Source: Candidatus Latescibacterota bacterium
Lineage (GTDB): Bacteria > Latescibacterota > UBA2968
Reading direction: 5' to 3'
Length of the DNA stretch: 64,000 nt
Assembly (NCBI GenBank): GCA_965116885.1
Contig: OZ220741.1
Location: forward strand, 5,312,001 to 5,376,000
Shown here one piece after another: positions 36,301 through 42,300 of the stretch. A program made the position numbers. Positions within the stretch are counted from its first letter, which is position 1. Each line of letters begins with the position of its first letter.

Positions 36301-39300
36301 CGTGCCCGTGTGGCAAAACAGCGAGTGGAAAAGGCCCATCGCCCCTGGGTTTGAGATACCAGAACGGCAAGCCAAAACGCGGCTCGGTAGTAATCACACC
36401 GGGTTGCAACGTATAATCGCCCATATCTTGCGCTGCACCGAGTTGCACCTGAATCGTGTGATCGCCCAGAGACGCACCAATACTTTCGAGCCCCAGCATA
36501 TGCTGAAGCACCGGGCGCGCCTCCTCTTGCCATAGCAGAAAAGATTCGCGATCAGTCGCTCGACACGCGACATAGCGCAGTTCATCGGCATAAAGAGCGT
36601 CGAGATAGGTGCGGACAGCACCGCTGTGTTCAGGATGTTCCATATTGAATAACCTTTCGAGGAAAAAAATGGCAGACACACTGCGAGAAGTACTGGATTT
36701 TGCAACAGATGCCGCCTGGCAAGCCGGACGGATCACGCTACAGTATTTTCAGACCGGCGTCGAAGTAGAGGAAAAGGCGGATGAATCACCTGTAACAGCC
36801 GCAGACAAAGGAGCCGAAACAAAATTGCGGGAATTGATAGAAGCGCGTTTTCCCAATGACGGCATTGTGGGAGAAGAGCACGGAGACAAAAAAGGAACAA
36901 CCGAACGACGATGGATTTTAGACCCCATTGACGGCACAAAATCATTCGTACAAGGCGTGCCCCTCTACGGAGTAATGGTCGGCGTGGAGGTCGAGGACAA
37001 ACCCGCCGTTGGCGTCGTCCATTTTCCAGCGCTAAATGAAATGATTTGCGCCGCTCAGGGACTGGGATGCACCTGGAATGGTCGCCCCACGCGGGTATCT
37101 GACATATCGGACATTCAGGACGCGACCGTGATCTTGACCGATTTTGTGAATGGGCATGGGCGAGGTGAAGCCATGGACCGGATCTGCTCACGCGCCAAAC
37201 TCGTGCGCGGCTGGGGCGATTGTTATGGCCATATGCTCGTCGCAACCGGGCGTGCAGAAATCATGCTCGACCCCATTATGAGCGTATGGGATTGTGCCGC
37301 ACTCGCGCCCATCCTGAAAGAAGCGGGCGGCACATTCACGACGTGGAGCGGCGAGGCAACGATTTGGGGCAACGAAGCCGTAAGTACAAACGGAGCGTTA
37401 TTTGAAGATGTGATGCAATTGATTAAAGAATAATTTATCCCGCAAATATCGAGCGATTTGATATGCCACAGATGCAATCTTCGCGCATGAATCCCGGCAC
37501 AAATTGGGCGGTTCGACCAGAAGGCGCCACGCCTGTATAGTAGCCCGAGAATTGTTCATTGAAAGTAGTCAAACGGTCGCGCGAAGCCTCACTGCTCTCC
37601 GCAGCCACAATGTACGCATTGTTAAAAACCCCATTTTCTTTCAACCCTGCGCCGCCTGCTGCCACGATATGCCCGTCAATCGCATTGAGAATAGCATCTG
37701 CATCATCGCCGCCAACACCGCTCACGAGCACCTCGGATATCCCCTGCCGCCGGATGGCCGTCCATGTACTGAAACCATCGACAATTTCCCCCGAGCGATC
37801 AATGGCGACATCGCCGGTAACGCAGCGCGGTTGCGGTTCAACGATACCATCGAGATTGGGAATGCGCGAGACCGGATAAATTCTACCCGCGGGGCGGTGG
37901 TCGCCAAAATAATCGGCAATCACTTGGCGCACGGTTTCAATGCGCGTCCAGGTTGCCGAAGGATTGTCGTCAATCGCGACGAGAACCTCGAGATGCGCGG
38001 TTTGCGTTTTGAAATCCACATTGTCAGCCGCGAGCTTTTTTTCGTACTGTTCTACGAGCACAAATTCCATCTCTTGTTTGAGATCGTCGCCGAGTGTCGT
38101 AACCGTATTGCCCCCAGAATCGGTATGCATCACCGACGCACCACTGGGCTGATGATCGGCCCACGCACCGTACTCGATCTTCCCATCGCCAAAGGAAATA
38201 TCCTCCCCCTTAACCGCTTTGATTTCCACCTCAAAAAGTGCTACTGGATCTGGAAACCCTTCTCCATGGGTAAAACGCGCCATGCGATTGGATTTGAGTT
38301 CACAACCCGTCACAGCATCAATCATAGGGCCATATACAGCATTAAACGCATCTCGATATGCCTCACAGTCGTCACGGCTATCAGATGGCGTCGTCCACAG
38401 GACATCGGTTTTGTACACATCGCCCCAGTTCGCGCCCCCGCGCGCAAGGCCCAGACTCAGGTTCTCAATGGTGCCAAACCACTCTGACCCGAGTTCATTG
38501 GGATACTGCGTACCCACATTGCCGCTGGGTTCAACAAGGCGCACGACCTGATCGTCGTCATAAGTCATAACAACTTCGGCTGTGCTACAAAAAATGGGAA
38601 TGGGTTTGTGACGGATAATATTGACGCTTGCCATAGTGAAAAATCCTTTGTGTTGGAGTTACCAGAAATTCGGTTTTCTACAAGATAGAGCTTGAAATAC
38701 ACAATGTCAATGCACGCGGAAGATCAGCCACCTTTGGATTGAAAAAACGCCCGCGCTTCGGCCAGAGACTCGCGGTTGCCAATATCGAGAACACCGCCAT
38801 CAATATTGTAAGCATAAACGGTTTCGCATGTATGCAACCATTCTAAAAAATGCCCAGGCGCGTCGGAATTGCCCCCATTGGCGATATATTCTTCAAAACG
38901 GGGCAGTATCGACGCCGGATAAATATAAACCGGCAAAGCCGACCACTCGGAAATGGGTTTATCGGGTTTCTCAATAAATTGCAAAACGCGATTATCTTTG
39001 TCTAACCGGACATTGCCCCTGCGCTTGCGATCATCGTAGTCGGAATTGTAGCGCACGGCAATATGAGAGACGGGATTGGATTTGAATATATTGACCAATG
39101 TTTGGAGAGAAAACAGCAGAATATTATCCGCGGCGAGAACGAGAACATCATCGGCAATATCGCGCGCATCAATAGCAAACTGGATATCGCCCACAGCACC
39201 CAAACGATCATCGTTGGAAGTTGTGCCATCGTTGAGAACCTCTATCTCCCCTCCCGTATGCACCGCTCTATTTGTACGCGCCCAATCGGCAAAGTGCCCG

Positions 39301-42300
39301 TAAAACCGGTGATTGGTCACCACATAAACGCCATCGATATCTGCAATAGCTTTAATCTGTTCAATCAGGTGATCGAGAATAGTCTTCCCACCTACTTCCA
39401 GCAAGGGCTTGGGAAAATTTTTTGTAAGAGGATACAGCCGCGTGGCGTATCCCGCCGCGAGAATAATAGCTTTCACAGAATCCTAACTCCATCGTCGGGT
39501 TGACAAATAAAAACAGGGGCATTCTTTGATAAATCGGGATGTTTGGCTCCATAAGCCGATTGAACCTGTTCAATCGCTACACTGGATTTTTGGGGATTAA
39601 CCAGTGCAACACAACAGCCCCGGAAACCGGCGCCGCTAAACCTGGCACCGTAAATCCCATCGGTTTCAATGAGAATATGGTAGAGATCAATGAGAGGTTT
39701 ACTACCGCATTCGTAATTCTCAATAGAACTGCGCCCCGACTCAGCGATCAGCCTGCCAAAAGTCTCGAGATCGCCAGTGCGCCAGGCATCAATACCCAGA
39801 CGCACGCGCTCAGATTCCGTAAAAAAATGTCTGGCGCGTTTGGCAAGAGCACCGCTTAACAGGTTTTTATGCATTTCGTATTCTTCAAAAGTAATATTGC
39901 CGAGCAATGGTTCTCGATCAGAACGCCCCACAGCATTGAGCAATATTCGCGCTGCACGGGCGCATTCATCTACCCGTGTGTTATACCCCGTCGAAACCAG
40001 AGCCTCGCGCAAGCCCGATTGGGCAATCAGAATATCAAAGTCTGGCATAGTATTGGACCGGGGGATCAATTCGTGTGTAGCCGAAGCGCAATCAATCACT
40101 GTGAGAGAGTCCTTCTGCGACAACAAGATCGCCGATTGATCCAGAATACCATTTTTGAGACCGAGGTAGCCATTTTCAATCGCCTGATCGAGCCGAATAT
40201 TATCTGCGGGCAATAGGGACAAATCATTGGCCTCTTCGTAAGCGAGCAAATAAGCCACGCCAATAGCGGCCGATGAACTCAAACCCCCTTCGTTCATTCT
40301 GCCCGCCGTAAGCCCCGTAATCCCGCGCGTGAGCTTATGACCCTCTTGCTGCAATGCGCGCACGGCACCACGCGGGAAATTGCCCCAATCCCCATCTATT
40401 TTGTCGGGCACATCGCTCAGTGCAAACGAGACCTCACCCTCAAAAGTAAGACTCTGAAGATGCGTATTGGCATCGCCCGATGGCGCAAAAGCGAGGTACA
40501 CAGCCTGATCAATAGCCATAGCCGTAACCTGTCCGAACTGGTGATCAATATGCGCGCCGAGCGGACATATCCGATAGGGCGATCGCACAACGCGCACATC
40601 GGCAGGCGCAACACCAAACCGGCGCTTCATTTCTGTTTTGAGTTGATCTATCATGAGTAGTCGGTTGTCTATGGTCAGCAGTCGGCGATCAACAACATTA
40701 CAAAAAAAGGAGAACAACCGCAATGCCACAAATCAAAATAGGCAAAGGTATTGGCGATATCTCAGAGCAGACATTGCGCTTTTATCGGCAAATTGGGGTC
40801 GATGCGGTATCGATACCAACGCGATGGCGCACAGAACCGGGAACGGGTGAACGCAAACTGGTCCCGCCGACACAGACGGGACCAAAAGGCGCGCAGGGAG
40901 GGATATGGGACGAGCGAGAATTGCAACGCATCAAAGCGAGGATCGAATCGTATGACCTCATACCTCTAATCACAGGACTGGGTATTTCAGGGCGCGTATT
41001 AATGGGCCAACCGGGCAGAGCGGACGATCTGAAAATTATCAAAGCCAATATCGAAATCGCAGGGCGGCTGGGACTTCGGGCATTAAACTACAGTTTCACA
41101 GCCCTCAGAGCCTCAGAAGGATATGCGGCGCAACGAGGTGTGGGACGCGGCGGCGCAGATCTGCGGGATTTTGACAACGAGCGGATAGCCAATCTCCCCC
41201 CCCTCAATTCAATCGGGCGAATTGGGATGGATGAAATGTGGGATAATCTGACCTATTTTTTGGAAAACGCGGTCCCAACAGCAGAAAAAGCGGGTGTACA
41301 ATTGGCCGCGCATCCCAATGATCCACCGATTCCAGAATATCGCGGCGTTGCCCAACCCCTGGGCGATATCGAGGGCATGCAACGGTTGATCGAAGTGATA
41401 GACAGCCCATCAAATTGCATTTTTTACGACACCGGCGTAATGACGGAAAAAGGCGCAGACGCCGTCGAAATGATTCGCTATTTTGGATCGCGGAATCGCA
41501 TTGGAACCGTACATTTCCGAAACGTGAAAGTGGAAATACCCCGTTTTAAGTATATCGAGACCTTTCACGATGACGGCGAATGCGATATGTTTGCCTGCGT
41601 ACAGGCATTTCAAGAGGTGGGTTACAACGGCATGATCGACCCCGACCACACGCCGGGCATCCTGGGCGATACACCAGATACGCGCATAGGCTGGGCGTAT
41701 GCCATCGGTCAAATGGTGGCGATGCGAAATGCCGTAGAAAAAAACAAATAAAAAAGCCCCAACGCGAAAAAGCGTTGGGGCTGCATGTGATATTGCGTGT
41801 CAAAAACTGAGAACACTATAAACCAGAGTAATCGCAAAAATTACGCCTATAATGCCCATGGCGACTTTGAATTGTAAGCTGATTCTATCCTCTTCCCGGT
41901 CGCGCAATTCGTTGAAAGTCTGCATAGCTCTCCCCCTTTGAGTAGTGCGGACGGATATGTTCTATATAAATAATACTAATTTCTCATATTAAGTCAATAG
42001 ACAAAATACGACTCTTGACATTTTATACAGATAAATCTATCGTTTGCAGTAGCTTTTGTATGAATGTTATACTCGGAGAAATATGCAAATGAAGTGGGTG
42101 GTCGTAATTGTAACAGTTATAGTTGTAGGTGCGCTGGGCGTTGCCTACCATCTGAATACCAATTTTCCCAAAGCTGATCCGCCTTATAATATTCGCGTAT
42201 CGGGAACACCCGAACAGATCGAGCGAGGACGTTATTTAGCCAATCACGTCACGGTATGTCTCGAATGCCATTCAACACGGGATTGGGCGCATTATTCTGC

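Follow-up and report, generated by a model that had tools for sequence, protein, structure and literature searches.

A Candidate Galacturonate-Salvage Kinase and Nucleotidyltransferase Pair in Latescibacterota, Capsule Gene Clusters, and Jumbo Phages

Known Systems for Sugar Salvage and Activation

Bacterial salvage pairs such as Fkp of Bacteroides for fucose and AmgK/MurU for MurNAc consist of an anomeric kinase and an NTP transferase, and bypass de novo synthesis of the nucleotide sugar. To our knowledge, bacteria make UDP-galacturonate (UDP-GalA) only de novo, through UDP-glucose dehydrogenase (Ugd) and a 4-epimerase, and use free galacturonate (GalA) as food. Salvage of GalA to UDP-GalA has so far been shown by experiment only in plants. 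The plant route comprises galacturonokinase (GalAK; EC 2.7.1.44) and UDP-sugar pyrophosphorylase (USP, "Sloppy"), as described in excerpts of two reports (PMC3355719; PMC6329318). In zebrafish and Xenopus, a glucuronokinase is fused to a putative pyrophosphorylase (DrGKUP; Gangl et al., 2014). The excerpted text of that paper describes only a trace of UDP-GlcA from the zebrafish pyrophosphorylase after 70 h, and names Ruminococcus, Clostridium, Prevotella, Verrucomicrobium, and haloarchaea as carriers of single-domain homologs of this domain, DrUP (PMC3938481).

Here, these systems are compared with a two-gene locus of a Candidatus Latescibacterota bacterium (genome G000), found within the window, the whole 64,000-nucleotide stretch of DNA that was analyzed. 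The locus and its neighbors are as follows.

37435..38634, minus strand: protein of 399 aa whose fold is Rid/YjgF-like, in most cases located downstream of the nucleotidyltransferase in the order (synteny)
38724..39476, minus strand: short single-domain sugar-1-phosphate nucleotidyltransferase (NT, P0002; g04628 in the genome-wide survey's note), ORF of 250 aa with a GTG start
39473..40654, minus strand: GHMP kinase of the galacturonokinase clade (P0001; g04629 in the same note), ORF of 393 aa
40723..41751, plus strand: UxuA-like (mannonate-dehydratase-family) gene, 342 aa, divergent, with 68 bp between its start and that of the kinase
41755..41782, no strand assigned: terminator-like hairpin of 11 bp with a T-run just after the uxuA-like gene, a consensus match only

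The pair shares its predicted two-step chemistry with plant GalAK/USP, but it is operon-coupled and mobile, and a PF00483 enzyme of 250 aa, in place of USP, is predicted to take the second step. Like DrGKUP, it joins a uronate 1-kinase to a short bacterial-type nucleotidyltransferase, whereas the kinase of DrGKUP is a member of the glucuronokinase family that acts on GlcA, P0001 falls in the GalAK clade, and P0002 is encoded by a separate gene. Fkp and AmgK/MurU differ from the pair in their sugars and kinase families.

The Kinase

The ATG at 40654 is favored as the start of P0001, since the open frames in close relatives have only 395 codons. P0001 exceeds the cut-offs of PF10509, PF00288, and PF08544, and its predicted structure (pLDDT 95) has the galactokinase fold, with TM scores of 0.87-0.91 against galactokinase structures and of 0.91 to 1PIE. 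P0001 resembles Leloir GalK in its GHMP fold, its catalytic Arg and Asp, and its ATP loop, and the catalytic and sugar-binding residues R28, H35, D37, D172, and Y224 are retained. The genome-wide survey's note had held the kinase to be distinct from the genome's GalK, and the alignments bear this out: P0001 matches Camellia sinensis galacturonokinase AHC32019.1, which carries that name as a database label, at 47% identity over 425 columns and full length (360 bits), as opposed to 30% identity and 156 bits for the genome's own GalK. P0001 also scores below the galactokinase cut-offs (189 versus 226.65 bits for TIGR00131; 218 versus 385 for PRK05322), both of which are exceeded by the genome's true GalK, located behind a galE-galT ORF.

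The contrast in sugar-site motif drawn in that note likewise stands, as P0001 reads GAHIDHQ where GalK has GEHTDYN. The residues of this signature (CP-GAHIDHQ; C30, P31, A34, H38, and Q39) are common to all five named plant and algal rows and occur in none of five GalKs. In GalK, the Glu at this site binds the 6-OH of galactose. The residue roles assigned to the plant enzyme, including the meaning of Ala for Glu, reportedly come from the 2009 GalAK paper of Yang and colleagues, and the Tyr kept in P0001 is presumably the residue that selects the galacto configuration at C4. P0001 lacks a plant insert close to the sugar-binding region, where Camellia GalAK carries about 19 more residues between P0001 positions 83 and 89. 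The glucuronokinase motif GNPSD is absent from P0001, and the JGI-named glucuronokinases P0509 and P0512 gave no match in G000 as tblastn queries and none at ortholog level in the order. ESM Atlas returned only generic GHMP names for the kinase.

In the tree, 78 rows with the GAH motif, plants and algae included, are split from five GalKs with starred support of 100, and P0001 lies within a starred subclade of 36 rows that also contains the plant and algal rows. On these sequence grounds, membership of P0001 in the galacturonokinase clade is supported. Plants are nested among bacteria in the best tree (LG+G4 quick tree), though the AU test on this quick tree did not reject a topology in which eukaryotes branch outside every bacterial member (p = 0.161); the nesting is how the best tree appears, and it is not read as evidence for either direction of transfer. 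GAH[IV]D is read in 96 of the best 150 representatives at 50% identity. Of the 120 nearest homologs, 26 already carry the name galacturonokinase at JGI; several databases use "galactokinase family protein." Judged from these homologs, the family is large and mostly bacterial, such that the earlier label "plant-type" is misleading and the rarity in bacteria that it conveyed falls away. Phe replaces P0001's Tyr224 in 24 of 73 non-GalK rows, the named plant and algal rows being excluded.

The kinase occurs in all 20 other genomes of the genus, in 28 of 30 genomes of the family, in 38 of 131 other genomes of the class, and in 39 of 168 phylum genomes with G000 counted, in keeping with the survey's account of a gene found throughout the genus and in part of the class.

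The Nucleotidyltransferase

The overlap of the two genes, also noted by the survey, spans 4 nt at the kinase stop (GTGA at 39473-39476). P0002 contains PF00483 (E = 4e-28), and among the best 25 of its 37 NCBIfam matches it reaches none of the cut-offs for GalU, RmlA, GlgC, MurU, or AglF. Its top score there, 75.6 bits (cut-off 400), is for AglF, the glucose-1-P uridylyltransferase of haloarchaea, and two MurU models give 49 and 38 bits (cut-offs 250 and 370). No PDB relative was found at E<=1e-12, and the genome holds one close second copy. The motifs R13, K23, D117, E169-K170-P171, and D231, typical of active pyrophosphorylases, are present in at least 117 of 120 NT homologs. Among the 120 matches listed, the NT is fused to an epimerase (52), a GNPSD kinase (32), a GalAK-like kinase (11), Ugd (3), a mutarotase (2), or other partners (20), these counts being clusters and not independent events. 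Two stand-alone homologs of the GNPSD kinase carry the JGI name glucuronokinase.

A canonical GalU scores above cut-off elsewhere in G000, and a GalU match is found in 51 of 53 order genomes, which weakens the idea that the NT substitutes for GalU. A search for PF01704, the USP domain, gave no match in G000, nor in any control genome. Across its family, the NT is a short PF00483 domain coupled or fused to uronate kinases, as is DrUP, and the taxa given for DrUP homologs in the excerpted text of PMC3938481 match the spread of the NT family. P0002 and DrUP probably belong to the same family, and P0002 is predicted to be a uronate-1-P uridylyltransferase.

Gene Neighborhoods within the Phylum

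In every one of the 29 family genomes whose kinase is intact, tblastn mapping places the NT 0-224 bp downstream of that gene. In the sister family (f2), the NT occurs in 21 of 22 genomes and an intact kinase in none of the 22 (E<=1e-80). A second uronate kinase that could account for NT retention in f2 was sought there and not found, and no glucuronokinase ortholog was detected in that family (best E about 1e-17). In families f3 and f4 the kinase is present in 10 of 79 genomes, with no NT match at E<=1e-40 in either family, and none of the 10 other kinase loci in the phylum has an adjacent NT. The survey's notion that the kinase has its "own" nucleotidyltransferase therefore holds for the family, but not for f2 or these other loci.

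The genome also encodes an epimerase-like enzyme outside the window.

C1:1472965-1473987: UDP-GlcA-4-epimerase-like enzyme, named from JGI labels and motif

Its only close PDB structure, 5U4Q (E = 1e-129), was deposited as a dTDP-glucose 4,6-dehydratase. The epimerase-like gene goes with the kinase within the order, being present in 27 of 30 genomes of the family (f1) and in none of 22 in f2, a co-occurrence that amounts to one contrast between two families.

In 19 of 21 genus loci the UxuA-like gene lies within 1.5 kb of the kinase in divergent orientation, an arrangement that the survey had described. As a clue to the pathway it is weak evidence, since it is one of 11 paralogs in the genome, and it falls below both NCBIfam uxuA cut-offs (117 versus 191 and 92 versus 199.55 bits) while scoring above that of PF03786. 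The 399-aa protein had no match in Pfam or NCBIfam; Atlas gives a hint of 0.87 to PF01042, and its low-confidence model (pLDDT 52) resembles YabJ/RidA (E = 1e-4). A promoter scan returned 9 hits versus 6.7 expected, which is chance level. Amidohydrolase genes are among the neighbors, and the module in this genome lies outside any glycan cluster. The habitat is marine, and the stretch is present in sponge metatranscriptomes. In three of four runs, RNA contigs extend over most of the kinase, and one of 1.8 kb takes in the kinase together with most of the NT; contigs can show neither transcription, nor its level, nor a single transcript, and these are given no weight in the reading proposed below.

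The Pair in Capsule Clusters and Phages

Outside the phylum, the kinase (35-52% identity) and the NT are adjacent in 15 of 20 loci, or in 11 of 16 once the four loci retrieved by a kinase-NT fusion query are set aside; the other five of the 20 lack an adjacent NT. Five capsule/EPS-type clusters hold the pair with ugd, and four of these also with a UDP-glucuronate-4-epimerase-like gene. The order is epimerase-kinase-NT-ugd in L144 and in L147, the eps cluster of a Lactococcus garvieae plasmid, kinase-NT-epimerase-ugd in L146, galE-epimerase-ugd-kinase-NT-wzz in L107, and kinase-NT-ugd in L145. The epimerases of L107, L144, L146, and L147, as well as that of G000, contain ASSSSVY, matching the carboxylate-binding site Thr126/Ser127/Ser128 described in an excerpt of PMC7984243.

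In L134, an MFS gene directly upstream forms a transporter-kinase-NT operon; its product matches the D-galactonate/hexuronate transporter subfamily TIGR00893 at 308 bits (cut-off 395). In a jumbo phage the pair is found among glycosyltransferase and tail genes, and in jumbo-phage loci it sits beside PLOD-type glycosyltransferases. One record (G773) was classed as phage from matches to tail sheath, tail fiber, and virion proteins, and terminase PF03237 was found in none of five viral records.

Proposed Pathway and Alternatives

We consider it probable that the kinase and NT form a salvage module leading from GalA through GalA-1-P to UDP-GalA for glycan synthesis. P0001, with ATP, would very probably phosphorylate D-galacturonate at C1, the Ala in place of GalK's Glu making room for the C6 carboxylate. 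With much the same high probability, the translationally coupled NT would join GalA-1-P and UTP to yield UDP-GalA, replacing the large USP of plants and, compared with the Leloir pathway, standing as a pyrophosphorylase-type partner where GalT would be. UDP-GalA could then serve as a glycosyl donor or exchange with UDP-GlcA through the genome's epimerase-like enzyme. Such a route would be anabolic and parallel to the de novo Ugd/epimerase route. The GalK and GalU roles are filled by other genes in the genome. Salvage that ends in a nucleotide-activated uronate is the reading supported by the ugd/epimerase-like clusters, the NT fusions, and the transporter-kinase-NT operon; of the survey's proposal of plant-style salvage to UDP-GalA, this and the clade assignment endure, while "plant-type" and "own" were overstated.

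The kinase could instead be a GalA kinase whose neighbor is not dedicated to GalA-1-P but acts as a generalist, or on glucose-1-P in the manner of AglF, or depends on another partner or nucleotide, and simply accompanies UDP-uronate genes. This is unlikely, although the NT without kinase in 21 of 22 f2 genomes, the kinase without NT in f3 and f4, AglF as top NCBIfam match, and the near inactivity of the zebrafish NT-like domain in the excerpted text of PMC3938481 all point that way, and fusion of the NT to a mutarotase, to Ugd, or to an epimerase (the latter two also fitting an AglF-like role) adds to them. A generalist role is countered by the GalU of G000 and the order, by coupling or fusion of the NT to two unrelated uronate-kinase families, and by the active-pyrophosphorylase motifs of its homologs. 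About equally improbable is salvage of another or broader uronate, such as D-glucuronate or a uronate from algae or sponge glycans. The Phe found for Tyr224 suggests that specificity may vary in the kinase family, glucuronokinase-like kinases are also partners of the NT family, and both the marine, sponge-associated occurrence and the lack of any glucuronokinase ortholog among the matches in the order favor it; yet P0001 keeps Tyr224 as do all five plant and algal rows, lies in the plant-containing subclade, and has relatives whose clusters pair the kinase with an epimerase making the galacto epimer.

A Leloir-like catabolic entry, from GalA through UDP-GalA and UDP-GlcA to breakdown with the UxuA-like dehydratase downstream, would suit an organism lacking the isomerase pathway, and matches to the UxaC, UxaE, and UxaB/UxuB families were indeed absent from the 98%-complete genome while controls were positive. 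The divergent uxuA-like gene also favors it, as does a uronate-dehydrogenase-like gene that in L045 lies immediately upstream of the kinase. We nevertheless regard it as quite improbable, given the 11 UxuA-like paralogs, the biosynthetic contexts outside the genus (EPS clusters and phage glycosyltransferases), and a plausible oxidative alternative in six Udh-like homologs and a GarD/UxaA-like protein. Least credible, and by our estimate highly improbable, is the view of P0001 as a second galactokinase that has diverged, or as an amino-sugar kinase, with no uronate role: fold, Pfam domains, and the "galactokinase family protein" label of homologs agree with GalK, but P0001 scores under galactokinase cut-offs, lacks the GalK Glu, and groups with plant galacturonokinase, and elsewhere the genome has a complete gal operon.

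Implications

The salvage module from GalA to UDP-GalA, if real, may be part of a wider picture that we offer only as a speculative possibility. The kinase and NT would constitute an ancient, mobile bacterial module for GalA salvage, with the NT representing the missing active family of uronate-1-phosphate uridylyltransferases, to which the orphan domain fused to the animal glucuronokinase would, as part of the same tentative picture, also belong. Gut and food bacteria would build capsule from a dietary pectin sugar, jumbo phages would glycosylate tail fibers with scavenged GalA without a de novo enzyme, and plants would have inherited GalAK from such bacteria, with the partner swapped for USP. 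If the salvage route itself is real, a sugar of pectin or host glycans could be channeled directly into capsule, LPS, or the glycans of phages, and a large unnamed nucleotidyltransferase family, including an animal domain with barely detectable published activity, would gain a function. One-pot synthesis of UDP-GalA would likewise gain compact enzymes from bacteria, and the question of where plant galacturonokinase came from would be opened again.

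Kinase Identity and Gene Layout

The kinase under study (P0001) belongs to the galacturonokinase (GalAK) clade and is followed by a nucleotidyltransferase (NT; P0002), with the stop codon of the first gene and the GTG start of the second sharing a 4 nt overlap. The locus comprises four genes:

39473-40654, minus strand: kinase ORF (P0001), 393 aa
38724-39476, minus strand: NT ORF (P0002), 250 aa, GTG start
37435-38634, minus strand: Rid-like ORF, 399 aa, downstream of the kinase and NT
Divergent from the kinase, start 68 bp away: UxuA-like gene, 342 aa

A low-confidence model gives the 399-aa ORF a Rid/YjgF-like fold; the ORF has no match in Pfam and NCBIfam searches, and accompanies the NT in family f1, that of the source genome, and in part of the sister family f2. 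Since all four genes have a GC content (48-53%) in line with that of the genome (51%), there is no sign of recent import. Records of close relatives are titled Candidatus Latescibacterota, and the stretch is present in sequencing runs labelled sponge metagenome. A defence island lies nearby (27403-35406), consisting of an SMODS cyclase, an S_4TM effector, two methyltransferase-like ORFs, and an Fe-S protein.

The genome-wide survey's note held that this kinase is distinct from the GalK of the genome, which is borne out. P0001 carries three galactokinase Pfam domains and is modelled by AlphaFold with a galactokinase fold (pLDDT 95), but scores below every NCBIfam galactokinase cut-off in a profile search, whereas the true GalK (C1:4502729) passes two. 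The two proteins share 30% identity; P0001 and the galacturonokinase of Camellia sinensis share 47% over 425 columns (360 bits). GalK is preceded by galE and galT in one 736-aa ORF directly upstream (L064:7887-10094; main contig about 4503900-4506100). In a tree of 83 rows, 78 GAH-motif proteins are split from five GalKs with a starred support of 100, and P0001 falls within a starred 36-row subclade holding the plant and algal rows. R28, H35, D37, and D172 are invariant in the kinase alignment, while C30, P31, A34, H38, and Q39 occur in 69-73 of 73 family rows, in all five named plant or algal rows, and in none of the five GalKs. At position 224 P0001 has Tyr, the plant state, where 24 of 73 family rows have Phe. 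Going by the residue roles reportedly described by Yang et al. (2009), A34 presumably occupies the site of the GalK Glu that binds galactose O6, and Tyr224 would be the residue selecting the galacto configuration.

The kinase family is not rare. Of 8000 proteins scored, 5746, ordinary GalKs among them, pass an E-value of 1e-30, and the GAH[IV]D motif occurs in 117 of the 120 closest homologs and in 96 of the 150 top-ranked representatives. Members with a named source are spread over Latescibacterota, Sumerlaeota/BRC1, Planctomycetota, KSB1, Pseudomonadota, Verrucomicrobia, and Lactococcus, in a patchy distribution (39/168 genomes of the phylum; 2/351 and 5/251 sampled in two others). The galacturonokinase label is already in databases, as JGI gives this name to 26 of the 120 nearest homologs. 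The best tree nests plants among bacterial members, with the alternative not rejected (p 0.161). The green algae Micromonas and Spirogloea encode GalAK-clade proteins (P0195, P0181, P0127), in contrast to the absence from green algae stated in a 2012 review (PMC3355719).

The Partner Nucleotidyltransferase

P0002 is a PF00483 enzyme by domain and retains the usual pyrophosphorylase residues; it has no close solved structure, and its 25 best NCBIfam matches all score below the curated cut-offs. GalU is supplied by another gene. The pairing proposed by the survey's note extends well beyond the window: the NT lies 0-224 bp downstream in all 29 family genomes whose kinase is intact, and no more than 2 kb downstream at 15 of 20 loci outside the phylum, a count in which the five near-identical phage loci (L139-L143) and the L107-type loci are each represented once. 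Four of these 15 pairs came from a search that used a kinase-NT fusion as query, and dropping them gives 11/16. Five outside-phylum loci lack an adjacent NT, one having only 350 bp of downstream sequence.

Among 120 longer NT homologs listed out of 145, the fused domain falls into these classes: NAD-dependent epimerase (52), glucuronokinase-like GNPSD kinase (32), truncated GalAK-like kinase (11, one lineage), Ugd (3), mutarotase (2), and other (20). JGI names two NT-epimerase fusions UDP-glucuronate 4-epimerase and two stand-alone GNPSD homologs glucuronokinase. ASSSSVY is present in 46 of 47 fused domains where the motif pattern was found, a region corresponding to the carboxylate site in PMC7984243. 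The pattern agrees with the zebrafish glucuronokinase-pyrophosphorylase fusion, whose second domain, according to PMC3938481, has single-domain bacterial homologs and gave only trace UDP-GlcA; P0002 is inferred to be a member of this domain's family. In one lineage (L107, L108; P0194 and relatives), a kinase minus its last ~85 residues is fused in frame to the NT inside an EPS cluster, and in its relative L109 the kinase is nearly full length. The source genome also has a second pair (L165:368-2340; main contig 102633-104605, minus strand), a GalU-like gene then a GHMP kinase whose motif reads GNPTD and which distantly resembles glucuronokinase (31-34% in relatives); this adjacent pair recurs in both families of the order.

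Gene Context and Competing Explanations

Evidence for the product of the pair is strongest in its context in other genomes. In L144, L146, and L107, kinase and NT either adjoin a UDP-GlcA-4-epimerase-like gene and ugd or are enclosed by them, as in the eps cluster of Lactococcus garvieae plasmid CP066001.1, where the kinase is split; L145 has the order kinase-NT-ugd. These clusters would combine the de novo route with the predicted salvage route to the same nucleotide sugar. In L134, a galactonate/hexuronate-type MFS gene is immediately upstream of kinase and NT. Across the order, the epimerase occurs in 27/30 f1 and 0/22 f2 genomes and the kinase in 28/30 and 0/22, a single comparison of kin groups rather than a statistical test.

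Kinase and NT also occur in a phage record of 379 kb and at four further, nearly identical loci, following PLOD-type glycosyltransferase genes and located among tail-fibre and tail-sheath genes; ugd is absent from all three phage records searched. This suggests virion glycosylation with salvaged galacturonate. The low-GC (27%) jumbo phage locus (L139-L143; G773:C1 about 193000-201600, L170-L171) reads at least two PLOD-type glycosyltransferase genes, GalAK-clade kinase (motif GSHIDHQ), 109-aa ORF, NT, and Mtd_N tail protein, in the tail-fibre region.

The most likely reading, which we consider probable, is that the pair would convert D-galacturonate (GalA) to UDP-GalA. The kinase would form GalA-1-P from GalA and ATP, the NT would form UDP-GalA from GalA-1-P and UTP, and UDP-GalA may then enter glycosylation or exchange with UDP-GlcA. 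Counted against this are the position of the module outside any glycan cluster in the source genome and the retention of the NT in 21/22 f2 genomes, a family that lacks an intact kinase (L068 holds one split copy), the epimerase, and any glucuronokinase ortholog. Their cassette (L067-L076, L085) has lost the kinase and kept the NT, with two divergent amidohydrolases, the Rid-like ORF, and a 488-aa ORF; a split kinase persists in G043. Conversely, in ten kinase-bearing genomes of the in-phylum families f3 and f4 no NT match reaches E<=1e-40, and none of their 10 loci has one adjacent. An NT not dedicated to GalA-1-P is unlikely, if the least so of the alternatives. Another uronate as substrate, to which the GNPSD fusions might point, is also unlikely, the window kinase sharing its Tyr224 with plants. 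A kinase of non-uronates is highly improbable given the clade split from GalK.

That the pair is a catabolic entry seems quite improbable. The divergent UxuA-like neighbour, to which the survey's note pointed, recurs in 19/21 genus loci but carries little weight as evidence, being one of eleven paralogs and below cut-off. In the source genome UxaC, UxaE, and UxaB/UxuB have no family match; their absence leaves room for a catabolic reading, yet six Udh-like homologs and a GarD/UxaA-like gene are present. GalA catabolism to KDG is predicted for other Latescibacteria in PMC4454575.

Significance

The module is real and well supported by context, with enzyme activities that are predicted. A literature search, covered mostly at abstract level, turned up neither a bacterial galacturonokinase nor GalA salvage in bacteria, and subscription journals and Yang et al. 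(2009) may mention bacterial homologs; glucuronokinase homologs in a few bacteria are noted in PMC2823444, and related literature includes PMC12224359, PMC6329318, and PMC3220709. What is new is that bacteria and phages would follow a route known from plants, with another enzyme for its second step, and the module would let an orphan enzyme family be tested directly.
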